Shown: piece after piece, positions 1 to 12,249 of the stretch | Layout: every line of letters starts with the position of its first letter | Position numbering within the stretch: position 1 is the stretch's first letter | DNA from: a virus | Taxonomy: Duplodnaviria; Heunggongvirae; Uroviricota; Caudoviricetes | Virus record (IMG/VR): IMGVR_UViG_2737471839_000006 | Location: 1-12,249 of that record | Direction: 5' to 3' (one strand) | Length of the DNA: 12,249 bases | Made by a program: the position numbers and the translations under genes | Notes under the pieces: model-generated | The model's database searches: none | What the model was told of the DNA's origin: nothing | Seen by the model: only the letters and a program-made list of their open reading frames with translations

Positions 1-109
1 CACCACCCCGTCAGTAGCTGAACAGGAGGGACAGCTGATAGAAACAGAAGCCACTGGAGCACCTCAAAAACACCATCATACACTAAATCAGTAAGTTGGC
101 AGCATCACC
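1..109 (-). mobile_element. IS1 terminal segment, including the terminal inverted repeat; the element continues beyond the window start and includes the first codons of insA on the minus strand
   Basis: Positions 1..109 are the exact reverse complement of the IS1 left end as I recall it (GGTGATGCTGCCAACTTACTGATTTAGTGTATGATGG...GACGGGGTGGTG). The terminal repeat ends at 109 (..CAGCATCACC), where the sequence turns abruptly AT-rich. Recognised from memory, not searched. Confidence 0.85.
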
Positions 110-337
110 CGGGGAACTATAACAATGTTTCTAGCTTGGTGCTGTATGAATTAGTGAATTAGTAGGGAATATATCCACACATTGATTAACACAAAAATAT
201 TTCAGATATTAAATGTAACTCAAAGGATGAGTAATAATGGTTGTGTAGCGTATAACAGGATGCTGAGGTAGTATTAAACAATGAATAAATCTGATTGACA
301 AGCACCAGATAATACTGCGGGTCAATCATTAGACATG

Positions 338-372
338 AACGCCACTAGTTACTGAGAGTAACTAATGGCGTT
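338..372. repeat. Near-perfect 16-bp inverted repeat (AACGCCACTAGTTACT-gag-AGTAACTAATGGCGTT, 15/16), a possible 3' stem-loop or protein-binding site downstream of the HD gene
   Basis: Read directly; one C/A mismatch. It sits 43-77 bp downstream of the minus-strand stop at 415..417. A second AT-rich hairpin (GATGTTTT-ttt-AAAACATC, 387..405) lies between the stop and this palindrome. Confidence 0.4.
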
Positions 373-414
373 GTGTTTATAGTTAAGATGTTTTTTTAAA
401 ACATCAGGGGGGCT

Positions 415-1962
415 CTACTTGTCTTTTTTAATATGTTCAATCTCATCATTAAGACATTTATCTATTTTTTTTATTAACACATTAATTTCTTCGGTGTTTT
501 GGAGTTGAGTTGTCTTAGAAACAAAAACTCGAATAAAGAATTTAACATAGTGATAGGGTTGAAGTACATCGTTATACTTACATAAATCATTTATTGTATA
601 CTTGCCGCCTGTTTCTTTTTTTATTATTTTAGCTTGACTTGTATCGATATCTTTAAAGTTATCTTCAATCTGAAAATCAAGAACCCATTCATCTCCTTTT
701 AAATTATCCTCAATGATTTTGTTGATTTTCTTAGATATATTTTGTTTATATTCTTTGTATCTGTTGTCGGAAATGTTAACATTAGAAAACGTGTGTTTTT
801 TTTCATATATTTTTTTCCAAACATTTCTATCAACAATATCTTGAATTATAGCTTGAGAATTTTTATCTAATGTGTTTTTAAGAGTGTTTTCTAAAAACGT
901 TTTGTCTGGGTTTTCACGATAAAAGTGTTTGATGGACTCAATGAGAGTGTTTTTAGATTTTAAAGAGACAACATCATCAGTTTTTTTTCTAGAACACGCT
1001 TTGTTAAGCATCGCAGATAGTGCACGATTGGTCTTATGAAAATAAACTTGACTATAAAGCCCACTTCTTGCATTGGCAAATTCTAGTATTGAATCCATAC
1101 CACTTTCTTTATATGCCAGGTAAACACTATTTTCAACTTTCACAGGAATAAATGACATTAATAATCGTCCATAATCATAAATCCCATATTTAACGCCGGA
1201 GAAGTAGCTATCTCTAAGTAGGTAGTCCATTCTGTCCGCATCTATAGGTGAAGATGATATGATTGAACCTAATAAAGGATATACATTTACTCCCTCAATG
1301 TTATTTTTAAAATCATATCTTTTATCAACAATTTTTATAATGCTTTCTGGATTAATAGCCGCTATGTTTTCTTTATAGACATCGTCGTCATTTGATTTAT
1401 CTTGGGCTTCATTTTTTAATTCTTCAATAATTTCTTTAATAAAAATACATGATACTTGTTCGTGGGTTAACTTGTCATTATCACTTAAAGATATAATCTT
1501 ATCGTATTGTTTATTTCCTTCAGTTTTGCATTTTTCTTTGAAATCTTTTACGGATATTGCAAAACTATCGAATTGGTGGGCAAGTGGGCCATGCCCAACA
1601 TCGTGTAACAATGCTGCAATACGTAACTCCTGTATAAGACTTGAAGGCATTTTTTTTATATCTAAATATAGATCAATGCCCATATTTTTTCGGTCATAAA
1701 TTAATGCATTCAAATTTATATTTTTCAAAATCTCATACGATAAATGCATTACACCGACAGAGTGTTCAAAGCGAGAGTGCATTGCAGAAGGAAATACTTT
1801 ATATAGAAACGTGTTCTGCCTGATATCTCGTAGTCGTTGGAATAAAGGATGGTCAATTATCTTTTTTTCTAGCTTAGTTATTCGAATCACTCCATGTATG
1901 GGATCTAAAAACTTCCCCAGAAGTAAGTCTTCAAAGTTCTCAAGTTTGTTTTTGTTTGTCAT
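415..1962 (-). CDS. SAMHD1-like HD-domain dNTP triphosphohydrolase (515 aa)
   Basis: Uninterrupted 515-aa ORF with ATG start at 1962..1960 preceded by AAGGAAAG. HD-superfamily motifs are all present: DPIHG (aa 21-24), RFEHS (aa 64-68), LLHDVGHGPLAH (aa 118-129), THEQ (aa 166-169), DADRMDYLLRD (aa 241-251). Spacing and flanking residues parallel human SAMHD1 as I recall it. Very AT-rich with K/N/I-rich codon usage, unlike the flanking prophage genes. Confidence 0.85.
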   Translation of the reverse strand: MTNKNKLENFEDLLLGKFLDPIHGVIRITKLEKKIIDHPLFQRLRDIRQNTFLYKVFPSAMHSRFEHSVGVMHLSYEILKNINLNALIYDRKNMGIDLYLDIKKMPSSLIQELRIAALLHDVGHGPLAHQFDSFAISVKDFKEKCKTEGNKQYDKIISLSDNDKLTHEQVSCIFIKEIIEELKNEAQDKSNDDDVYKENIAAINPESIIKIVDKRYDFKNNIEGVNVYPLLGSIISSSPIDADRMDYLLRDSYFSGVKYGIYDYGRLLMSFIPVKVENSVYLAYKESGMDSILEFANARSGLYSQVYFHKTNRALSAMLNKACSRKKTDDVVSLKSKNTLIESIKHFYRENPDKTFLENTLKNTLDKNSQAIIQDIVDRNVWKKIYEKKHTFSNVNISDNRYKEYKQNISKKINKIIEDNLKGDEWVLDFQIEDNFKDIDTSQAKIIKKETGGKYTINDLCKYNDVLQPYHYVKFFIRVFVSKTTQLQNTEEINVLIKKIDKCLNDEIEHIKKDK

Positions 1963-2023
1963 GAGGCTTTCCTTTTGCTGTAGTTATAATACGAAATTTA
2001 AATAGTAATGATGTTTATAGTTT

Positions 2024-2052
2024 CAATGTGTTATCTAATGGTTAACACATTG
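2024..2052. promoter_or_regulatory. Perfect 10-bp inverted repeat CAATGTGTTA-N9-TAACACATTG, a putative operator or promoter element 62-90 bp upstream of the HD gene start
   Basis: Read directly. On the minus strand the right arm ends in TTGAAA, which could serve as a -35 element. The 10-mer TTCAATGTGT (2022..2031) recurs at 3873..3882 upstream of the second island gene. Confidence 0.45.
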
Positions 2053-2321
2053 TGATGTAGCATATCAATATGGATTCATATGTTCAATTGGTCTGTGGAG
2101 TTTAGTTATGAATAAGATTGATTCTGGTAATACTTTGTAGTTTAAGCTAGAGGCGGGATTCGTGATGTTCAAATCAGTATGTAATGGAGGTTGTGCATTA
2201 GTACTTGCTGCTGGAAATTAAAAATAAAGTTGCAAGTAATCGACGTTTTCCGAGAGGAGGATGTAAGCATCGCTGACCAAAAAGTATCAACGATGCCTGT
2301 TTTGTTTTAACTACAAATTAA

Positions 2322-3824
2322 TTAAATTGCATCTGCAAACTCTGTGATTTTTCGCTCAAGTATGATTGATGAGTTGCTGTTGTCGATTTTTTTATTTTCA
2401 TGATTACGAATAGCCAATGACTCATTAAAGTCTTTTGCGACTGCTGTCTCAATAAATTCAATTTCTGAATCAGAGTGTTTTTTAACAGCTTCTTTGATCT
2501 CATCCAGAGTAACATAGAAAAACTCTTTTCTACGATTTACAAGATTGACTCTCTTTTTATCGAAGACATCATGTAGTTTTTTTTCTAATGATGGAGCGTC
2601 CTCCGAATAAATCATGGCATGCACATCAAAAATAAAAGGAACAGATGCATCACCAAGCTCATTTACACGGTCTTGTGGATCAAGACGTCGTGTCATGCCT
2701 ATTTTATAAACATTCTCCCCAAAAGAACCTATGTTCGAAATAATATAAACATGACCTTGTTTGGTTTGTTGTGCCATGGATAATGCTCTTTGATGCTTTG
2801 ATTCAGCCTGCGACAAACTCTGTTCTAGTTCGGCAATGCGATTTTCGAGGCGCTGCTTCATGTCACCAGTAACTTTTTCCATTTCCTTTCTTGCAGCTTC
2901 AATTGCTTTTTTATAACGGCGCTCTTCTGCCTCTGCGTCTTGCATGGCCTTTTCTATTTCTCGTTGTGCACGCTCCTCCTCTCTCATTTGTGCCCTTATT
3001 TCTGCCTGTTCTTCTTTTTCTTTCTGTTTTTGCTCACGATATTCATGGGTAAGCCACAACTCCTCAAGTTTTTTATTAAGGTATTTAGTATTTATATATA
3101 TGTGATTTTGCTCGTTTAGTTTATTTATGGCCTCAAATGCCTTTGTGATGCGTTCTTCCATTTTAGTGATATTTTTCCACGTGCAATTACTAATTGCAGC
3201 ATCACATTCATTATTAAATGCTCTAGTAGTTAGCCTAATATTTCTGTCTGTCATTTTTTTACCCTCTGCTCGAGAGCCTTCAACAGTCCATTGGGTTGTG
3301 CAATATACTGCACCAGAGTGGGTTTTATCCCGCAGCATTAATTTCTGTTCATCCCTGATGGATTTTATTTTGTTTTTAAATTGCTCTGAATCTTCAAAAT
3401 TAAAATGAGGTTCGTAAAATCCTAGTTCGGCTAGTTCAACATCTTCTGAATAAATAGAAATTTGCTTTACTAGCTTATCATATATTTCTTTCTTCTCTTT
3501 ATAAGTTCTTCTTAGTTCTTGGATTTGTTTATTGATACCATCCATTTTTTCAATGGTGTTTGTTAGTTCATTATTGGCATTTTCTTTTACTTTTTGGGAC
3601 TCTTCTTTTATAATGGAGCATTCTTGCTCTGTTTTCTCAATAAGCTTCTTACATTCCTCTTCCACATTAAAATAATCTGCAAAGCGAGATTTGTATTCTT
3701 CATTTTTTTGATTGCTATCACTTAATTCTAATTGTATTTTTTTGATGCGTTTGATTGCAGCTATATATAGAACAAGAACAACCAATAAAAATATGATTGC
3801 AAGTAATAGTGGAGTTTGAGTCAT
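2322..3824 (-). CDS. Membrane-anchored coiled-coil protein with C-terminal T5orf172/MUG113-type (GIY-YIG superfamily) domain; middle region resembles DUF4041 (500 aa)
   Basis: 500-aa ORF with ATG at 3824..3822 and GGAA upstream. N-terminal hydrophobic helix (LLLAIIFLLVVLVLYIAAI, aa 5-24). Long E/K/Q/R-rich heptad-like segments (aa ~30-130 and ~250-350). C-terminal block GHVYIISNIGSFGENVYKIGMTRR...PFIFDVHAMIYSEDAPSLEKKLHDVFDKKRV...RKEFFYV (aa ~357-440; nt ~2505..2756) matches the T5orf172 signature as I recall it. AT-rich like the HD gene. Confidence 0.85.
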   Translation of the reverse strand: MTQTPLLLAIIFLLVVLVLYIAAIKRIKKIQLELSDSNQKNEEYKSRFADYFNVEEECKKLIEKTEQECSIIKEESQKVKENANNELTNTIEKMDGINKQIQELRRTYKEKKEIYDKLVKQISIYSEDVELAELGFYEPHFNFEDSEQFKNKIKSIRDEQKLMLRDKTHSGAVYCTTQWTVEGSRAEGKKMTDRNIRLTTRAFNNECDAAISNCTWKNITKMEERITKAFEAINKLNEQNHIYINTKYLNKKLEELWLTHEYREQKQKEKEEQAEIRAQMREEERAQREIEKAMQDAEAEERRYKKAIEAARKEMEKVTGDMKQRLENRIAELEQSLSQAESKHQRALSMAQQTKQGHVYIISNIGSFGENVYKIGMTRRLDPQDRVNELGDASVPFIFDVHAMIYSEDAPSLEKKLHDVFDKKRVNLVNRRKEFFYVTLDEIKEAVKKHSDSEIEFIETAVAKDFNESLAIRNHENKKIDNSNSSIILERKITEFADAI

Positions 3825-3872
3825 TCGTGCTATTCCTTACGGACAATTTAAGACGTTTTGTATTAAATCCTG

Positions 3873-3882
3873 TTCAATGTGT
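3873..3882. promoter_or_regulatory. Second copy of the 10-mer TTCAATGTGT, 49-58 bp upstream of the start of the 500-aa gene
   Basis: Read directly; identical to 2022..2031. On the minus strand it reads ACACATTGAAC, again ending in a -35-like TTGAAC. Confidence 0.35.
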
Positions 3883-4152
3883 ATGCGGGTGATTGCTACC
3901 GCTTACAATCTTCATAATTATCAGTTAGATAGACTCGCTAGTAAATAATTTCATTTTTTGCAATATTCTTATTGAATATTTCAATTTATGAAATGAACTC
4001 TTTATCCTTTCAAGGCGAAAGGTTTCTTCTTCGGAAATATTTGCTCTCGTGTGACGTATAAAGGCCTTTGATTTTTAAAAAACAGTAGGGAATAATATAG
4101 TTACTGTCGGCCTGAACACCCGGCGGTGGGGTTGCGCTAAACGGGGACGTTT

Positions 4153-4254
4153 ATGCGCACATACAATCTAAACTCTCTTCTCCCTTCACAGATGCAGAAA
4201 TGCACCTGCGATTTTTTGCATCCAACGTTTGACCTCTGCGGAGGTGAAGCGTGA
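4153..4254 (+). CDS. ylcH: Small 33-aa ORF, YlcH-like, overlapping the ybcN start by 4 nt
   Basis: ATG at 4153 translates to [33 protein letters not shown] and stops within GTGA, which also supplies the ybcN start. Size and position match my recollection of ylcH in DLP12. Too short for the ORF track; hand-translated. Confidence 0.4.
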
Positions 4255-4706
4255 ACCTACCACAAGATGGCATCAAATTACATCGCGGCAACTTCACCGC
4301 TATCGGCCAGCAGATCCAGCCTTATCTGGAGGACGGAAAATGCTTTCGCATGGTGCTTAAACCGTGGCGTGAGAAACGCAGTCTTTCCCAGAATGCACTC
4401 AGCCACATGTGGTACAGCGAAATCAGTGAATACCTTATCAGCAGGGGGAAATCGTTCGCTACCGCAGCATGGGTAAAAGAAGCTCTCAAACACACATACC
4501 TCGGTTATGAAACCAAAGAACTGGTTGATGTCGTAACCGGTGAAATCACCACTATCCAGTCGTTACGCCATACCTCCGATCTTGATGCCGGAGAGATGTA
4601 TGTCTTCCTGTGTAAGGTTGAAGCCTGGGCGATGAATATTGGCTGCCACCTGACTATTCCGCAGAGCTGCGAGTTCCAGCTGCTGCGCGACAAGCAGGAG
4701 GCGTAA
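4251..4706 (+). CDS. ybcN: NinB-family protein (YbcN-like), 151 aa, GTG start
   Basis: ORF track 4251..4706. GGAGGTG sits 5 nt upstream of the GTG. The sequence [19 protein letters not shown]...[18 protein letters not shown] matches the DLP12 YbcN/NinB family as I recall it (lambda NinB has the analogous RSLDQN block). Confidence 0.9.
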
Positions 4707-4876
4707 TGGCTACACCGCTTATTCGTGTCATGAACGGACACATCTACAGAGTACCAAATCGTCGTAAGCGTAAACCTGAGCTGAAGCCATCCGAAATACC
4801 AACACTGCTCGGATATACCGCCAGCCTGGTTGATAAAAAATGGTTGCGACTGGCAGCAAGGAGGAATCATGGCTGA
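4706..4876 (+). CDS. ninE: NinE-family small protein (56 aa)
   Basis: ATG overlaps the ybcN stop (TAATG). Hand translation gives [56 protein letters not shown]. Below the ORF-track size cutoff. Confidence 0.7.
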   Translation: MATPLIRVMNGHIYRVPNRRKRKPELKPSEIPTLLGYTASLVDKKWLRLAARRNHG

Positions 4877-5159
4877 TTTGAGAAAAGCAGCGCGTGGTCG
4901 GGAATGCCAGGTAAGAATCCCTGGCGTATGTAATGGCAACCCTGAAACGTCTGTACTGGCACATATCCGGCTGACTGGATTGTGCGGCACCGGTACCAAA
5001 CCGCCAGACCTGATTGCCACCATTGCATGTTCTGCCTGCCACGACGAAATCGACCGCCGCACACATTTTGTCGATGCCGCATATGCAAAAGAATGCGCGC
5101 TGGAAGGTATGGCGAGAACGCAGGTTATCTGGCTGAAAGAGGGGGTAATCAAGGCGTGA
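4869..5159 (+). CDS. ybcO: YbcO-like putative nuclease (Cys-rich, 96 aa from ATG at 4869)
   Basis: Track ORF 4830..5159 begins at a TTG; the ATG at 4869 is preceded by AGGAGGAA and gives 96 aa ([23 protein letters not shown]...), the size I recall for DLP12 YbcO. Conserved Cys/His residues (C..C..C..H) are present. Confidence 0.75.
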
Positions 5160-5518
5160 ATACCTACAACATCACATTACCCTGGCCGCCTAGCAATAAC
5201 CGCTACTACCGGCATAATCGCGGGCGCACACACATCAGCGCAGAAGGGCAGGCATACCGCGATAACGTCGCCCGAATCATTAAAAACGCAATGCTGGATA
5301 TCGGCCTGGCTATTCCTGTAAAAATCCGCATTGAGTGCCACATGCCGGATCGCCGTCGCCGTGACCTGGATAATCTGCAAAAAGCCGCTTTTGACGCACT
5401 CACCAAAGCAGGTTTCTGGCTGGATGATGTTCAGGTCGTTGATTACCGTGTTGTGAAGATGCCCGTTACCAAAGGTGGGAAGCTGGAGTTGACCATCACC
5501 GAACTGGGGAATGAATGA
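5156..5518 (+). CDS. rusA: RusA Holliday-junction resolvase (120 aa, GTG start overlapping the ybcO stop)
   Basis: Track ORF 4982..5518 is a 5'-extended frame; GTG at 5156 (within GCGTGAAT) gives [23 protein letters not shown]...[25 protein letters not shown], which I recognise as RusA. Confidence 0.9.
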
Positions 5519-5655
5519 TGTTTGAGTCTTATATGGCAGAACGTCTTCGCCACCGCTGGATGCGCCTGCGCTTATATCGTTTCCCCGGTTCTGTTTTGAC
5601 CGATTACCGAATACTGAAGAGTTACGCCAAAACCCTGACAGGAGCAGGAGTATGA
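5515..5655 (+). CDS. ylcG: YlcG-like small protein (46 aa)
   Basis: ATGATG start overlaps the rusA stop (AATGAATGATG). Hand translation gives [46 protein letters not shown]. Below the track cutoff. Confidence 0.55.
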
Positions 5656-5740
5656 AGTCAGAGATAACAACCAACTAATACTGTTTTGTTGATTTTTGCT
5701 TGTAATTGGCGTTCTGGTCTGAGTTTTGTGGAGTAAGTTG

Positions 5741-6124
5741 ATGCGTGATATTCAGATGGTTCTTGAGCGTTGGGGAGCGTGGGCGGCTAATAATCATGAA
5801 GATGTGACCTGGTCGTCCATTGCCGCCGGTTTTAAGGGATTAATTACTTCAAAAGTAAAATCTCGCCCGCAATGTTGTGACGATGACGCGATGATCATTT
5901 GCGGGTGCATGGCCCGTCTGAAAAAGAACAACAGCGATTTGCACGATTTATTAGTAGATTATTATGTAGTCGGTATGACATTCATGTCACTGGCAGGTAA
6001 GCATTGCTGCTCTGATGGTTATATCGGGAAAAGGTTACAGAAGGCTGAGGGCATAATTGAAGGGATGTTAATGGCATTAGATATCCGGTTAGAGATGGAT
6101 ATCGTTGTTAATAACTCTAATTAA
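5741..6124 (+). CDS. quuD: Late-gene antiterminator Q (QuuD-like, 127 aa)
   Basis: Track ORF 5726..6124 starts at an upstream TTG; the ATG at 5741 gives 127 aa ([24 protein letters not shown]...) with Cys clusters ([18 protein letters not shown]) typical of Q-family antiterminators. Position after rusA/ylcG and before the lysis genes is as expected. Confidence 0.85.
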
Positions 6125-6157
6125 TATGCCAATTGTTTACTAAAAATTATTAAAAAT

Positions 6158-6175
6158 GGGGCGTTGAGACGCCCC
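6158..6175 (-). terminator. GC hairpin (GGGGCGT-tgag-ACGCCCC) followed on the minus strand by ATTTTTAATAATTTTT; candidate intrinsic terminator for minus-strand (nmpC) transcription
   Basis: Read directly. The T-rich tract is only on the minus-strand 3' side, 34 nt beyond the quuD stop. Confidence 0.4.
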
Positions 6176-6265
6176 CAAAAATAAAGGGTAATATATAACA
6201 GAAGGTTTATATAGTTAGAAGCAAGGTTGTGCTTCTAAAGGAAGTGGCTTGAGGGAGCCACTTAT

Positions 6266-6304
6266 ATGTTGGGGAGGCAACGCCTCCCGCAACATATCTT
6301 TTTC
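6266..6304 (+). terminator. tR'-like intrinsic terminator candidate (GGGAGGC-aac-GCCTCCC within an extended imperfect stem, then ATCTTTTTCG)
   Basis: Read directly. Lies about 140 nt downstream of quuD, where lambdoid phages place pR'/qut/tR'. Two further hairpins (6218..6237, 6244..6261) sit just upstream. Confidence 0.4.
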
Positions 6305-6313
6305 GTAATCAGA

Positions 6314-7411
6314 TTAGAACTGGTAAACCAGACCTACAGCAACGATGTCATCAGTGCTTACACCGAGTGCTTTAGTGAAGTCATTTTTGTCAAGCAGGTT
6401 GATTTTGTAATCAACGAAAGTAGACATATTTTTGTTGAAGTAATAGGTTGCACCTACATCAACATATTTGACTAAGTCCTGATCGCCCCATACTCCAAGA
6501 TCCTTACCTTTAGATTGCAGGTAAGCAACGGACGGACGCAGACCGAAATCGAACTGATATTGTGCAACAGCTTCGAAGTTTTGGGCTTTATTAGCAACGA
6601 AGTGATCAGCAAATACAGTCATATTCTGGGTTTCAGAATAGGTAGTGGCCAGGTAAATGTTGTTAGCATCATATTTCAGACCTGCGGCCCAAACTTCTGC
6701 ATTTTTACCGGAAGCAAATACTTCAGGAAGAACTTTCCCTGCATTAACTTGAGTGTCGGTACGATCAGATTTCGCATAAGTTGCACCGATACCGAATCCT
6801 TCGTATTCATAGGTAGCAGAGAAACCGAAGCCATCACCGTTACCTTCAGTGTAGTTATCGAAATCGCTACGATCGTTTTTGCCTTGGTACTGAGCAGCAA
6901 AGTTCAGACCATCAACCAGACCAAAGAAGTCGTTGTTACGATAGGTTGCAACACCAGTGGTGCGACCAGTCATGAACACATCTGTTTGGGTCCAGGTATC
7001 GCCACCGAATTCTGGCAGAACGTCAGTCCACGCACCGATGTCGTATGCTACACCGTAGTTACGGCCGTAATCGATTGAGCCGTAGTCACCGAATTTCAGG
7101 CCTGCAAATGCAAGACGGGTTTTGTCTTTGGAGGAACCTTGAGATTCAGCGCGGTTGCCTTTGAATTCATATTCCCACTGACCGAAACCAGTCAGTTGAT
7201 CGTTGATTTGGGTTTCACCTTTGAAGCCAAGACGGGCATAAGTAGTATCACCATCATCTGCATCATTAGAGGAGAAGTAGTGCTTAGCATTAACTTTCCC
7301 GTACAGATCCAGCTTGTTACTGTCTTTATTATAAATTTCAGCTGCCTGAGCAGACATCGCCATCAGTACTGATGCAGCTACAGCAGAAATTGCCACTGTT
7401 AATTTTTTCAT
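6314..7411 (-). CDS. nmpC: Outer-membrane general porin NmpC/OmpD-like, intact (365 aa with signal peptide)
   Basis: ORF track. N-terminal signal peptide [23 protein letters not shown] then AEIYNKD...; C-terminal ...AVGLVYQF, the typical porin terminal Phe. ATG is preceded by AAGGG. Recognised as the DLP12 porin gene, here without an IS interruption. Confidence 0.9.
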
Positions 7412-7840
7412 CGTGAGCCCTTTTTTTTGAACTATTATTAAAAAATGATGTCACTGCGCGATAAATATTCATCTAATCAATGTGATTATTTCAAGATGTA
7501 AGTTTTGGTTTCTCGTTTGATTTGTGAAGTAGATCTCTATTTTTATCTGAACTTTTTTCTATCGAATCCTATTCATAGCTCTTGGCTGAATAAAAATAAA
7601 TCTATTAGCCAATTTATATTAACGACTGTTATTTATAAGTGCTCTATAATTTGAAGGTTCAATTTAAATCGGCTAAAAATAACACTGGAAATTATTTGTT
7701 GGTTATTTGTTGAGGTTTTCTTATGTATTTGTGGTGGTGTTTTGAACACTCGGTAGCATTCTCGCAAATATCATTTAGTGGTTTACGTACGTAAAAAATT
7801 GGTTATGCTGTTAAGAGTGGTTACTTCGTCACACAGCTTA

Positions 7841-7873
7841 AACCCGCCGTCGAGCGGGTTTTTCCATTTTTTG
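7841..7873 (+). terminator. Intrinsic terminator candidate about 110 bp upstream of the holin gene (AACCCGC-cgtcga-GCGGGTT then TTTCCATTTTTTG)
   Basis: Read directly; the T-tract is on the plus strand only. Confidence 0.55.
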
Positions 7874-7984
7874 AGTCTCGATATTAGCTGATAACCCAAT
7901 ACCTGAGTTATTCACTGACTCCGAGTCTGTTACGTTTCGTAGTATTCCCTCAATTTACACCCGCTTTGTCTGCGAGGTGGGGTT

Positions 7985-8200
7985 ATGAAATCCATGGATA
8001 AGTTAACAACGGGTGTCGCCTATGGCACCTCAGCAGGTAGTGCCGGGTACTGGTTTTTACAGCTGCTAGATAAAGTCACGCCCTCACAGTGGGCGGCAAT
8101 TGGAGTGCTGGGTAGCCTGGTATTTGGCCTGCTGACGTACCTGACAAACCTTTATTTCAAGATTAAAGAAGACAAGCGTAAGGCTGCACGGGGAGAGTAA
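7985..8200 (+). CDS. essD: Class II pinholin, phage 21 S21-like (71 aa) with dual-start motif MKSM
   Basis: ORF track. [71 protein letters not shown] is near-identical to S21 as I recall it; two TM segments; Met1/Met4 dual start. Confidence 0.9.
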
Positions 8201-8204
8201 TTCA

Positions 8205-8549
8205 ATGACTCAAAACTATGAACTGATTGTGAAAGGGATCCGCAATTTTGAGAATAAAGTTACGGTAACTTTAGCGTTACGGGACAAAAAACGCTTTGAC
8301 GGTGAAATTTTTGACCTGGACATCTCGCTGGACCGTGTTGAAGGTGCCGCGCTGGAGTTTTATGAGGCAGCAGCCAGAAGGAGCATCAGACAGGTCTTCC
8401 TGGATGTTGCTGCCGGGTTATGTGAAGGGGATGAGCTGTCGCCGGAAAAGCGCCCCATAATTTTAGAGGCGCAGAATGTGTGGATAACCTACAAAGGAAA
8501 GCTACCGGGAAGAATTACTGGTTCTCTGAAGACTCCGCCGAAATGGTAA
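8205..8549 (+). CDS. Hypothetical protein (114 aa) inserted between holin and endolysin; no family recognised
   Basis: ORF track. ATG at 8205 lies 5 nt after the holin stop, with GGAGAG 7 nt upstream, so it is positioned for co-expression with late genes. No motif I can assign. Confidence 0.6.
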   Translation: MTQNYELIVKGIRNFENKVTVTLALRDKKRFDGEIFDLDISLDRVEGAALEFYEAAARRSIRQVFLDVAAGLCEGDELSPEKRPIILEAQNVWITYKGKLPGRITGSLKTPPKW

Positions 8550-8787
8550 TTTCACCAGCATATTTTTCTTCCAGTAATACCGCCAGCCACTTGAAAGAAT
8601 TTTGTTGTTGCTGGGACCATTTGGGGTTGAGTGATTCAAGCTGGAGCGATGCCAGTGTTGGTTGCATTTGTTCCTTGGGAATTGAGAATGCCAGATATGA
8701 AAATGCGACAGTAAGGGCATTTACATCATCCCGAAGCCTGGAAATGCAGTCGAGCAACTCCTGTAGAGAAATGGTGCTATTGTCCAT
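8515..8787 (-). CDS. Hypothetical protein (~90 aa), convergent with and overlapping the 3' end of the 8205..8549 gene
   Basis: Track ORF 8515..8793 starts at a TTG; the in-frame ATG at 8787 is preceded by GAGAGGA at 6-nt spacing on the minus strand. Ordinary Leu/Gln-rich composition; no recognisable family. Confidence 0.5.
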   Translation of the reverse strand: MDNSTISLQELLDCISRLRDDVNALTVAFSYLAFSIPKEQMQPTLASLQLESLNPKWSQQQQNSFKWLAVLLEEKYAGEITISAESSENQ

Positions 8788-8892
8788 AAACAATCCTCTC
8801 TATTGTATTTAACTATTCCTTGCCTGATTCAACAGGCCGGGACAGATAAACATATCCAGGGTTCAGAAACCGATAAATCCTGATAAATATCC

Positions 8893-9426
8893 ATGAACGC
8901 AAAAATCAGATACGGCCTGTCGGCTGCCGTTCTGGCACTGATTGCCGTCGGTGCGCCTGCGCCTGATATTCTCGACCAGTTTCTGGATGAAAAAGAAGGT
9001 AACCACACAACGGCATACCGCGATGGTTCCGGCATCTGGACCATCTGTCGGGGTGCCACGGTGGTGGATGGAAAACCCGTTTTTCCCGGTATGAAACTGT
9101 CGAAGGAAAAATGCGACCAGGTTAACGCCATTGAACGGGATAAGGCGCTGGCATGGGTGGAGCGCAATATTAAAGTGCCACTGACCGAACCACAGAAAGC
9201 GGGTATCGCGTCATTTTGTCCCTATAACATTGGCCCCGGTAAGTGTTTCCCGTCGACGTTTTATAAGCGGCTGAATGCCGGTGATCGTAAAGGTGCATGC
9301 GAGGCGATTCGCTGGTGGATAAAAGATGGTGGGCGCGATTGCCGCATACGTTCAAATAACTGCTATGGACAGGTTATTCGTCGTGACCAGGAAAGCGCAT
9401 TAGCCTGTTGGGGGATAGATCAGTGA
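8893..9426 (+). CDS. SAR endolysin (T4-lysozyme-like muramidase, 177 aa)
   Basis: ORF track. N-terminal weakly hydrophobic Gly/Ala-rich segment ([17 protein letters not shown]), typical of a signal-anchor-release domain. The following E-x8-D-x5-T triad ([16 protein letters not shown]) has T4-lysozyme spacing. Confidence 0.9.
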
Positions 9427-9881
9427 GCAGAGTCGCCGCGATTATTTATGCTCTGGTTATCTGCATCATCGTCTGCCTGTCATGGGCTGTTAATCATTAC
9501 CGTGATAACGCAATCGCCTACAAAGAGCAGCGCGATAACAAGGCCAGTGAACTGGAGAAGGCGAACGCCACCATCGCTGACATGCGGAAGCGTCAACGTG
9601 ATGTAGCAGAACTCGACGCAAGATACACAAAGGAGCTTGCTGATGCTAACGCGACTATCGAAAGTCTCCGTGCTGATGTTTCTGCTGGGCGTAAGCGCCT
9701 GCAAGTCGCCGCCACCTGTGCAAAGTCAACGACCGGAGCCAGCGGCATGGGCGATGGAGAAAGCCCAGGACTTACAGCAGATGCTGAACTCAATTATTAC
9801 CGTCTCCGAAGTGGAATCGACAAGATAACCGCGCAGGTTAACTACCTGCAGGAATACATCAGGACGCAATGCCTGAAATAA
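9423..9881 (+). CDS. Rz: i-spanin Rz (GTG start overlapping the endolysin stop)
   Basis: Track ORF 9408..9881; GTG at 9423 (within CAGTGAGC) gives (M)[33 protein letters not shown]..., closely resembling lambda Rz: N-terminal TM anchor, coiled-coil periplasmic domain. Confidence 0.85.
9637..9828 (+). CDS. Rz1: o-spanin Rz1 lipoprotein, embedded in the +1 frame of Rz
   Basis: Track ORF 9637..9828. Lipobox-like VSAC followed by a proline-rich stretch ([13 protein letters not shown]), entirely inside Rz in another frame as in lambda. Confidence 0.75.
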
Positions 9882-9912
9882 TTTTTTTGCAAATCACAAA
9901 GTCCATTTAATG

Positions 9913-9936
9913 AGCCTCGCGATGCGGGGCTTTTTG
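9913..9936 (+). terminator. Intrinsic terminator after the lysis cassette (AGCCTCGC-gat-GCGGGGCT with one G-U pair, then TTTTT)
   Basis: Read directly, about 30 nt downstream of the Rz stop. Confidence 0.5.
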
Positions 9937-9942
9937 CAATAA

Positions 9943-9967
9943 ATGCGTACCGCAACGCATGTTTTTT
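9943..9967 (+). terminator. Second tandem intrinsic terminator (ATGCGT-accgca-ACGCAT then GTTTTTT)
   Basis: Read directly, immediately after the first. Confidence 0.45.
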
Positions 9968-10082
9968 ACACCGAACCTGCCCCTTTGGAATGGGCCTTTG
10001 AGGATACCAGTTAGTGCTGGCGAGCCTCGGTGGGCTGGTTTCCTGTGCGGCAAAGGTTCATTTCAAAGAGTAGGTACACGCT

Positions 10083-10580
10083 ATGAAATCATTAACCCTC
10101 TTCAATCAACCAATTCGTATCGGTGAAGATGGCATGATCTGCCTCACTGACATGTGGAAAGCTAGTGGTAAAAGTGAATCTGAATCGCCGTACCACTATC
10201 TGCGAAACAAGCAGACCAAAGAGTTCTTAGCCGAGCTGGAGAAAAACCACGAATCTGTGGTTTTTACTGAGCGCGGTGTACACGGTGGAACATATGGCGG
10301 GAAGTTTGTTGCTTACGATTATGCGGCTTGGTTAAACCCCGGGTTCAAGTACGCGGCCTATAAAGTCCTCGATGACTACTTCACCGGAGAACTTCAGCAT
10401 CGCAACAGCTTAAGTGCGCAGCTCAACATGAAATGTCATGAGTTTGACCAGAAGAAAGACATGGCGAGCTTCTGCGGACAAGGGCTGGCAGCATGGCGCT
10501 ATACGAAGCCAGTGTTGGTCGCTGAGATTAACTCCCTGGCTAACCAGCTGCAGATTACGATCCCCGGGCTTCCGGGATGA
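10083..10580 (+). CDS. KilA-N domain protein (165 aa)
   Basis: ORF track. The N-terminal region (..FTERGVHGGTYGGKFVAYDYAAWLNPGFKYAAYKVLDDYF) has the aromatic/AxWLxPxF pattern I associate with KilA-N DNA-binding domains. Confidence 0.75.
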   Translation: MKSLTLFNQPIRIGEDGMICLTDMWKASGKSESESPYHYLRNKQTKEFLAELEKNHESVVFTERGVHGGTYGGKFVAYDYAAWLNPGFKYAAYKVLDDYFTGELQHRNSLSAQLNMKCHEFDQKKDMASFCGQGLAAWRYTKPVLVAEINSLANQLQITIPGLPG

Positions 10581-10852
10581 GTGATCGTGTCATTGAATGC
10601 GCCTCCAGAGCGGGGCGCGACTTCTCAGAGTTCATGAAAGGCGAGAAGGGCATGATGGAAGCATTGGCCTCGGTGGATGAGTTTGGCGAGCAGCTGCGCC
10701 TCAACGGCTGTGTCAATCATCACTTTGTTAGCTACATGATGCGGAACTCGATCATGCAGGCATTCATGGACATGGCAAAAGCCGAGAGGAAAGAAGAGCG
10801 CCGGCATAAGCGAGCGGAAGCAAAAGCAAAAGCAAAAGCAAAAGTGAAGTAG
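10577..10852 (+). CDS. Hypothetical protein (91 aa) with basic C-terminal (AK)n tail; start overlaps the KilA-N stop
   Basis: ORF track; ATGA overlap at 10577..10580 suggests translational coupling. Confidence 0.6.
   Translation: MSDRVIECASRAGRDFSEFMKGEKGMMEALASVDEFGEQLRLNGCVNHHFVSYMMRNSIMQAFMDMAKAERKEERRHKRAEAKAKAKAKVK
10820..10843 (+). repeat. (GCAAAA)x4 perfect tandem hexanucleotide repeat encoding AKAKAKAK
   Basis: Read directly, within the 3' end of the 10577..10852 ORF. Confidence 0.8.
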
Positions 10853-11334
10853 CCATTACAAAGCCCATTTACGGGTGGGCTTGATAATGAAACCGGAATT
10901 TATTCTGGGCCACCAGTTAACGGCAGTACCACGAAACAACCCAAGCCAGTAAGTGGGGAAATAACACTGGCAGCCACTGAAAGATGAAGCTCCTGCCTTA
11001 AGGCAAAAAAGATTCTTTGTGGTGGCGGACTGATGGAAAGACATCGGTTATTGCAGAGGCCATTCAATGAGTGGTCTCGACAATGGCTTATACCCTACAC
11101 GGGATAACTTAACTGATATCCCTTTTAACGGATAAAGGTATTCAAGCCTGACACATCATGCGCTGTATCGTCGCCGTATTCCCGCATTAACCATGACCGT
11201 AGCCCGACGGGGAATTCCTTCTGCGTGAGTGTGCGGGAATAATCAAAAACGATGCACACCGGGGTTACCGGGTACACATATTTCATCATGCCAGCGAGTC
11301 CGGTTCTGGCGCGGAAGAAACCGGACGTTATGAT

Positions 11335-11760
11335 TTAGTGCGGAAATATTTGTGTAGTGTTCTGAATGTTCTCAGTAAATAGTAATGAATTATCAAAGGT
11401 ATAGTAATACCTTTTGTTTTCGTGGATATTTGTAATCCATCTGAAAACCCCTGCTGTAGCAAGATTTTTCCTGTATTCGTAAAATGATAACTCTCCTGAT
11501 TTGAATCCTTTTAAGGTGGCTTCTATAAGGCATTTATTTTTTGAAAATCTTACATTTACAACCTTACCCTGTCCTTTTATTAAAACCGTATTATCGTTTT
11601 CAAGAACAAGATGAATATTCTCTGTGGCTAAATAGTAAATGTAATGTGAGACATTGTGACGTTTTAGTTCAGAATAAAACCAGTGATAGTTTAAATTATT
11701 TCGCACTTTATCGAATATTTGTTTAAAAATGGCAACCTGAGCCATTGTAGTACCTTCCAT
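11335..11760 (-). CDS. ybcV: YbcV-like protein (DUF1398 family); ATG at 11745 would give 136 aa
   Basis: ORF track; AT-rich. [43 protein letters not shown]... recalled as the DLP12 YbcV family. A GTCCGGTT..AACCGGAC hairpin lies just downstream (~11293..11321). Confidence 0.75.
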
Positions 11761-11802
11761 GTGATATGATGGGGCGTAGTCTGCACGATTATCTAAATTG
11801 CT

Positions 11803-12036
11803 TCAATCTGGTCTGACCTGTTTTCTGAGCAATTCAGTAATGTCACTCTTTTCTTTGTTTGCTTCAGGCGAAACTCTTTTTTCTGAGCACAGTCTCCGGC
11901 GGCAGGCTTCAATGACCCAGGCTGAGAAATTCCCAGACCCTTTTTGCTCAAGAGCGATGTTAATTTGTTCAATCATTTGGTTAGGAAAGCGGATGTTGCG
12001 GGTTGTTGTTCTGCGGGTTCTGTTCTTCGTTGACAT
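11803..12036 (-). CDS. Small basic protein, YlcI/DUF3950-like (77 aa as called; start uncertain)
   Basis: ORF track. MSTKNRTRRTTTRNIRFPNQMIEQINIALEQKGSGNFSAWVIEACRRRL... has an Arg-rich N-terminus and a ribbon-helix-helix-like core, and sits immediately upstream of cos as in DLP12/lambda. Confidence 0.6.
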   Translation of the reverse strand: MSTKNRTRRTTTRNIRFPNQMIEQINIALEQKGSGNFSAWVIEACRRRLCSEKRVSPEANKEKSDITELLRKQVRPD

Positions 12037-12149
12037 GAGGTTGTCCCGTATTCAGTGTCGCTGATTTGTATTGTCTGAAGTTGTTTTTACGTTAAGTTGA
12101 TGCAGATCAATTAATACGATACCTGCGTCATAATTGATTATTTGACGTG

Positions 12150-12249
12150 GTTTGATGGCCTCCACGCACGTTGTGATATGTAGATGATAATCATTATCAC
12201 TTTACGGGTCCTTTCCGGTTATCCGACAGGTTACGGGGCGGCGACCTCG
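12150..12249 (+). other. Lambda-type cos site: cosQ-like region and cosN, with the 12-nt cohesive-end sequence GGGCGGCGACCT at 12236..12247
   Basis: 12065..12235 matches the lambda right-end sequence as I recall it (...GACGTGGTTTGATGGCCTCCACGCACGTTGTGATATGTAGATGATAATCATTATCACTTTACGGGTCCTTTCCGG[T/G]ATCCGACAGGTTACG), followed by GGGCGGCGACCTCG. Confidence 0.8.

Follow-up and report, generated by a model that had tools for sequence, protein, structure and literature searches.

Background

The operator lacO1 is centred at +11, the NikR-type dyad GTATGA-N16-TCATAC is bound by tetrameric repressors, and 5' hairpins of the ompA type protect an mRNA from 5'-end-dependent decay. These are the closest described counterparts of the element analysed here, a short motif that recurs upstream of two genes in a 12,249-nucleotide stretch of DNA from a tailed phage (IMG/VR record IMGVR_UViG_2737471839_000006, positions 1 to 12,249; the whole stretch is hereafter called the window). 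The two genes, one encoding an HD-domain protein (HD gene in the following) and the other the defence protein PD-lambda-1/SNIPE, form an anti-phage island that spans window positions 110 to about 4100 and lies in an E. coli lambdoid prophage. We tentatively propose that the motif is a start-site-proximal operator, that is, a cis element situated just downstream of the promoters of these genes; it is not a promoter.

The locus resembles lacO1 and the long-spaced dyads in that a perfect dyad runs from the predicted +1, right after the -10 element, with cores two helical turns apart and with extra single copies nearby. It differs from lacO1 and the NikR-type operators because no cognate protein accompanies it, its half-site matches no operator named here, there is one dyad only, and this dyad is not conserved in homologous cassettes. 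With the ompA-type stem-loops it shares a stable hairpin 0-2 nt from the predicted 5' end and, after it, an AU-rich leader without structure, but the hairpin is found here in the E. coli lineage only and leaves the other copies of the motif unaccounted for. Judging from these analogies, the element may act as start-site-proximal operators do, or as 5' hairpins of the ompA type, and would be new at most as another cis element of such a kind.

Among prophage systems, PD-lambda-1 has now been named SNIPE (Nature 2026, PMC13190303), and in the same study SNIPE was expressed from its 'native promoter'. The island agrees with such self-contained promoters of prophage moron and defence cassettes in that each cassette brings its own upstream region, while a word common to two unrelated cassettes is not a known feature of these promoters. 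The regulators encoded by this type of prophage, CI/Cro and YdaT, also bind inverted repeats (the YdaT box is TTGATT-N6-AATCAA; PMC9986795, PMC11879457), but the sequences are unrelated to the motif. The expression and control of prophage-borne defence genes such as SNIPE are largely unstudied. If the motif is an operator, it would offer a handle on the factor that tunes two defence genes jointly, and would show how stacked cassettes gain joint control; if it is not, what keeps its value is the conserved HD promoter, the cassette boundaries and the placement of the motif in the leader and not in the promoter. These three results are firm, as is the non-random perfecting of the dyad.

Results and discussion

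Motif copies and their expected frequency

A preliminary description of this DNA had placed a shared 10-mer upstream of both island genes, a perfect palindrome at the HD gene and a related half-site close to the left end of the window, and all of these coordinates are correct (Table 1). The 10-mer, TTCAATGTGT on the plus strand, lies 60-69 nt upstream of the start codon of the HD gene (position 1962) and 49-58 nt upstream of that of SNIPE (position 3824), both on the minus strand. Its 8-mer core, CAATGTGT, is present in four copies, every one of them in non-coding DNA of the island. The centres of the two 8-bp cores of the palindrome are 21 bp apart, corresponding to two helical turns, and the cores are therefore on the same face of the DNA.

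Against an expectation of 0.58 copies of the 8-mer, the four copies found were not reached in any of 200 shuffles. The probability of the pattern was also evaluated with dinucleotide-preserving shuffles of the non-coding DNA of the island (1,090 nt), in tests that correct for the word having been picked afterwards. Any 8-mer, low-complexity words excluded, occurred at least four times in 25 of 2000 shuffles; a perfect inverted repeat of at least 10 nt with a spacer of up to 20 nt appeared in 12 of 500, and a common word of at least 10 nt, located within 20 nt of an equal distance from the two ATG codons, in 19 of 1000. From this analysis it is evident that the pattern is real, such features being reached in only about 1-2% of shuffles. 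As the motif was picked by eye, this is not an overwhelming result, and there is only moderate evidence for any effect of the motif.

Position of the motif relative to the promoters

The region upstream of the HD gene was aligned across six lineages (E. coli, Proteus, Serratia, Enterobacter and two that we label L090 and L387), whose proteins are about 75% identical. The best-conserved block of this alignment is CAATTGAAY-ATATGAATCCATATTGA-TATGCT, which reads as a -35 element TTGAAY, a 17-nt spacer and an extended -10 element TGnTATGCT. Across the lineages, identity to E. coli amounts to 87.5% in the promoter block and to 97.8% in the extended -10. This promoter was missed by our sigma-70 scan because its score, 8/12, is below the threshold of 9/12. 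The seventh base after its -10 is position 2052, which is also the first base of the palindrome; the palindrome therefore covers approximately +1 to +29 of the predicted HD transcript, and ACACATTGAA approximately +22 to +31. Dyad symmetry thus adjoins the predicted start site, as a perfect 10-bp repeat that begins at the seventh nucleotide after a conserved -10, and a position directly after the -10 is a normal place for a repressor.

For SNIPE, the scan returned a single minus-strand candidate in the 240-nt upstream region, TTTACT-17-GATAAT, and on the basis of its sequence alone we putatively place the promoter there, at 3945-3917. The SNIPE copy of the 10-mer would then occupy about +29 to +38 of the predicted leader (about +29 to +36 for the 8-mer core), in the same orientation as at the HD gene, and the distances of the two copies from the predicted start sites would differ by 7 nt at most. 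The -10 of this candidate is not retained in a pseudogene copy of E. coli P276M, the sole relative of intermediate divergence that we found for the SNIPE upstream region. The P276M locus (L004, 2480-3960) is itself a divergent SNIPE copy, frameshifted or truncated (338 aa annotated), in a DLP12-like remnant. When SNIPE relatives were sought for footprinting, none was found between 99% and about 60% identity, so that only this pseudogene copy helps, and the polymorphism among the E. coli copies is too small to inform.

It had also been considered that the motif could itself be the promoter. TTGAA(A/C) would then be the -35 of each gene or, in a variant for SNIPE, the site would be a sigma-E-type promoter, tGAACag-N16-TCTTA. 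Indeed TTGAAA and TTGAAC match TTGACA at 4/6 positions, TTAAAT follows 20-22 nt after all three sites, and the block from TTGAAC to TCTTAAAT is nearly unchanged in P276M. The SNIPE 10-mer and the second dyad next to it (Table 1) together read TTGAACag-N16-TCTTA, which we take to be sigma-E-promoter-like, and the site presumably resembles the rpoH P3 and degP promoters. Nevertheless, no -10-like hexamer is located 16-18 nt from TTGAA(A/C) at either gene; hexamers that have A as their second and T as their sixth base are spaced at 19-21 nt, the nearest acceptable ones (TAAATT) at 20-21 nt, and the scan finds no promoter there. Moreover, TTGAAA is replaced by TCGAAA, AAAAAA or TCGCAA in the other HD lineages, Enterobacter has a 6-nt deletion between the TTGAA(A/C) hexamer and the conserved TATTTAAAT, the HD site does not have the C of the sigma-E -10, and a much better conserved promoter (block 2059-2090) is found 30-65 nt upstream. 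We thus discard this explanation as very improbable.

Proposed function of the motif

According to the operator hypothesis, the HD gene would be transcribed from the conserved sigma-70 promoter (2087-2059), with the palindrome beginning at the predicted start. A DNA-binding protein of the host, or one encoded at another place in the lysogen, would occupy the dyad where HD transcription is predicted to begin and also the neighbouring single copies, which could be auxiliary sites. Such binding would hinder initiation or early elongation, and as a result two independently acquired anti-phage genes would come under one control. Both the binding of a protein and the co-regulation of HD and SNIPE are what we infer from the arrangement of the sites. 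It had been pointed out that no regulator gene is visible in the island, and this is borne out by our analysis.

Table 1. Features of the island and its left border, with window coordinates
Feature	Position	Strand	Description
IS1 end	1..109		100% match to IS1 in >5000 plasmids; abuts the island
Fourth 8-mer copy, ACACATTG	177..184	+	3' of the HD gene, past its terminator hairpin
Stem-loop 3' of the HD gene, likely terminator	341..369	-	13-pair stem; GC/AU covariation in 6 lineages
HD-domain gene, 515 aa	415..1962	-	Pfam HD 8e-7; PADLOC dGTPase 9e-4; TIGR01353 23.4 bits against a cut-off of 152
10-mer, copy 1	2022..2031	-	ACACATTGAA on the gene strand; overlaps the promoter-distal palindrome arm
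Perfect inverted repeat (HD palindrome)	2024..2052	-	CAATGTGTTA (2024-2033)-N9-TAACACATTG (2043-2052); longest in the whole window
Predicted HD promoter	2059..2087	-	-35 TTGAAC 2087-2082; 17-nt spacer; extended -10 TGATATGCT 2067-2059; +1 at about 2052-2053
PD-lambda-1/SNIPE gene, 500 aa	2322..3824	-	PADLOC PD-Lambda-1 5e-198, residues 1-484; Pfam DUF4041 + T5orf172
Second dyad, ATTTAAGAC-N5-GTATTAAAT	3846..3868		23 bp; 4 nt from the SNIPE 10-mer
10-mer, copy 2, upstream of SNIPE	3873..3882	-	ACACATTGAA on the gene strand; the same in the 78%-identical P276M copy
Best SNIPE promoter candidate	3917..3945	-	TTTACT-17-GATAAT, sigma-70-like, 9/12; predicted +1 at about 3910

Conservation and origin of the dyad

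At the position of the palindrome the other HD lineages read TAATATGTTG-ACTATTAAA-TAACATATCG, a 7-bp dyad that is mostly imperfect. All of its pairs are present in Enterobacter, 6/7 in L090 and 5/7 in Serratia, and it is weak in Proteus and L387. Compared with the consensus of these lineages, the E. coli dyad carries seven substitutions, all of them transitions. Three of them add pairs that the consensus does not have, and another two make up a double change from A:T to G:C. Taking the consensus as the inferred ancestral state, the seven changes raise pairing from 7/10 to 10/10, an outcome that random sets of seven substitutions give at a rate of about 6e-5, and the perfect dyad therefore comes from a non-random process. 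This process was either selection for symmetry or a templated correction of the quasi-palindrome, a type of event known in E. coli.

Where E. coli has the 10-mer, the other HD lineages have ACATATCGAA or a similar sequence, and the same substitutions that perfected the dyad converted it into ACACATTGAA, the word found upstream of SNIPE. The copy at 177-184 is not conserved; the other HD lineages show AAACGTGC there on the gene strand, and the copy arose from it. In the SNIPE cassette, the upstream DNA of P276M is 78% identical, and within it the 11-mer GTTCAATGTGT and the adjacent 22 nt, which belong to the second dyad (3846-3868), are kept exactly while both flanks have diverged. As to the conservation of the motif in homologues, which had been suggested as a check, the motif is kept in the SNIPE copy of P276M and changed in the other HD lineages.

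These changes could be read as a history of the island. After HD had landed beside SNIPE, substitutions would have made CAATGTGT at three places of the HD cassette (the two promoter-proximal arms and the 3' site), matching the copy that pre-existed in the SNIPE leader, so that unrelated genes would have been wired to one regulator. We regard this scenario as improbable; if true, it would mean that a stacked defence island evolved shared control de novo. In an even more speculative variant, the word might serve for self-recognition in cis, with one of the two defence proteins reading it, in analogy to the aba element of BstA (PMC8585504).

Possible 5'-terminal hairpin of the HD mRNA

The palindrome could also function in the RNA. 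Folded into a 10-bp hairpin right where the HD transcript begins, it would shield the mRNA from 5'-end-dependent decay, and the copies at SNIPE and at 177-184 would be coincidental. The hairpin begins 0-1 nt from the predicted +1, has a free energy of -10.1 kcal/mol with a z-score of -5 (first 42 nt), and is the only stable structure of the 90-nt leader; the A:T to G:C double change strengthens its stem. On the other hand, the start site that it would depend on is a predicted one, and no comparable hairpin is present in the other lineages (z between -1.8 and +1.0), which indicates that the cassette has no general, conserved need for it. As a structured RNA leader, then, the hairpin is seen in E. 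coli only and is not retained across homologues. The leader of SNIPE shows no significant structure (z = -0.1), and the two extra copies of the motif, each of which we estimate to have a probability of about 2-3% by chance, are left unexplained. We judge a 5'-terminal stem-loop to be unlikely, placing it after the operator and after the neutral origin discussed below.

Two further searches concerned the RNA level. The palindrome was tried as an intrinsic terminator and rejected, as its stem is A+T-rich, it is followed by AAACTATAAAC or TGATGTAG with no U-run, and the scan did not return it. No covariance model of Rfam 15 matched window positions 1-4400 with E up to 1.

Evidence against an operator

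The preliminary description had proposed a common operator or promoter element on the basis of the clustering of the motif. In favour of an operator, the copies cluster beyond chance (about 1%), they follow closely after the best promoter candidates and share one orientation there, and the dyad was perfected by a non-random process. A number of results, however, weigh against it. The 10-bp palindrome is perfect only in the E. coli lineage, which makes the motif lineage-specific, and its identity to E. coli, 62-68% in the arms and 70% in the 10-mer, ranks with the lowest upstream of the HD gene. The SNIPE site and the 3' site are single half-sites. A common word of at least 10 nt anywhere between the two upstream regions was obtained in 198 of 1000 shuffles, which is not significant. 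In the rest of the same prophage and its flanks (about 73 kb) there is no exact copy of the 8-mer, and there is none in the hotspot of about 75 other ybcN loci, which disposes of the idea of a general element of the ren-ybcN hotspot. The transcription start sites of both genes are predictions, and templated correction of the quasi-palindrome, in the absence of selection, could also have given a perfect dyad.

It should be noted, in addition, that no binder could be named, none of the candidates compared (CI/Cro, YdaT) giving a fit. The operator region of CI/Cro in the prophage is ATACGC-N2-GCGTAT-like and unrelated, and the motif does not occur there. For the YdaT box, the window contains 15 matches with up to three mismatches against 14.65 expected, a number consistent with chance; no match falls on the dyad or on the SNIPE copy, and one with three mismatches (182-199) overlaps the end of the copy at 177-184. 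In an informal comparison of consensus sequences, CRP, Zur, IHF, ArcA, KdgR, P22 C2 and LysR-type regulators were also considered, and none of them fits both sequence and spacing.

In another reading the motif has no function: an ancestral quasi-palindrome, ATATGTT-N11-AACATAT, would have been perfected by a template-switch mutation, and the other 8- and 10-mer matches would be due to chance in AT-rich DNA (about 32% G+C), having caught the eye because repeats were being sought. The common 10-mer found in 20% of shuffles, the corrected tests that all reach only about 1-2%, the lineage-specific and poorly conserved character of the motif, and the fact that neither a regulator nor further sites were found would all be expected in that case. 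To these can be added the bipartite pattern ACACATTGAA-N19-22-TTAAAT, of which viral contigs contain more than 120 matches, mostly environmental and attributable to chance; as a search for further sites the pattern was uninformative. Several unlikely and roughly independent events would nevertheless have had to fall on one 8-mer, namely that the repeat is perfect, that two more copies exist, that orientation and position relative to the promoters match, and that every copy is non-coding. Furthermore, both arms are changed relative to the consensus, and therefore one template switch alone is insufficient. A neutral origin seems doubtful to us, and we rank it second to the start-site-proximal operator, which remains our first, tentative choice.

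Cassette structure of the island

The island has a G+C content of about 32%, compared with about 50% in the DNA to its right. In the closest relatives it is situated between ren and ybcN in a lambdoid prophage integrated at icd; here ren is replaced by an IS1 end (window 1-109). It consists of two independently mobile cassettes, one with the HD gene and one with PD-lambda-1/SNIPE, whose boundaries are located at about 110, 2262 and 4067-4133. SNIPE and its flanks (window ~2263 to ~4066-4132) occur alone in about 110 complete E. coli genomes, and HD and SNIPE together in 21. Cassettes homologous to that of HD, with proteins about 75% identical, were found without SNIPE in Proteus, Serratia, Enterobacter, Klebsiella, a Yersinia P2-like prophage and two uncultured contigs. 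Since the cassettes are independent, the word that they share was not inherited from one duplicated promoter. Each carries its own upstream region of about 240-300 nt, in an orientation that opposes the phage early-right operon. The boundaries were also considered as recombination scars, a reading that was discarded, as no boundary coincides with any copy of the motif.

Both genes are known or ordinary, namely SNIPE and an HD-domain moron. The SNIPE gene matches the PD-lambda-1 profile over its full length and has DUF4041 together with a T5orf172/GIY-YIG nuclease domain. In strains TB354 and Evo1 an IS1 is inserted within SNIPE and splits the gene. The product of the HD gene is weakly dNTP-triphosphohydrolase-like; an assignment as dGTP triphosphohydrolase was rejected because the score is far under the curated cut-off (Table 1), family cut-offs are not reached, and only the HD domain is secure. 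Its homologues are found in prophage and defence-type contexts. In Yersinia enterocolitica (L385/L386) and Enterobacter (L381) they are placed between tail genes of a P2-like prophage and beside genes for HigB/helix-turn-helix proteins and type VI secretion, settings that are consistent with a mobile defence-type moron. Several of these HD-homologue loci have a convergent downstream gene of about 150-180 aa, which E. coli does not have.

Other non-coding elements

As the likely terminator, the stem-loop at 341-369 would end the HD transcript short of the copy of the motif at 177-184. Around it, the non-coding DNA that follows the HD gene on its 3' side (window 205-414) is conserved across genera over some 200-330 nt (L090, 3046-3400; also L379, L381, L384 and L387), and this region may be more than a terminator; neither a conserved open reading frame nor an Rfam match was found in it. 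A 9/10 match to the palindrome arm, TAACACATTA (window 475-484, plus strand), is located within the 3' end of the HD coding sequence.

At the opposite end of the HD cassette, 200 nt that precede the HD promoter are conserved at the DNA level. They include a small open reading frame, MFKSVCNGGCALVLAAGN (window 2166-2222, plus strand), divergent from the HD gene, with similar peptides in L090 (MFKPVCNHGCTIVF...) and Serratia and a stop codon in Proteus; its coding status is uncertain. Just downstream of the SNIPE stop codon, at the cassette junction, the hairpin GCATCGcTGA...TCAaCGATGC followed by TGTTTTGTTTT (window 2267-2308, plus strand) is likely a terminator for rightward (phage early) transcription, and it is also present in SNIPE-only loci. 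Finally, in the 100%-identical prophage of strain 23AR0806, the annotation lists the antiterminator gene Q (L001, 14542-15231) as a pseudogene that contains an internal stop, and for this reason that prophage may be defective.

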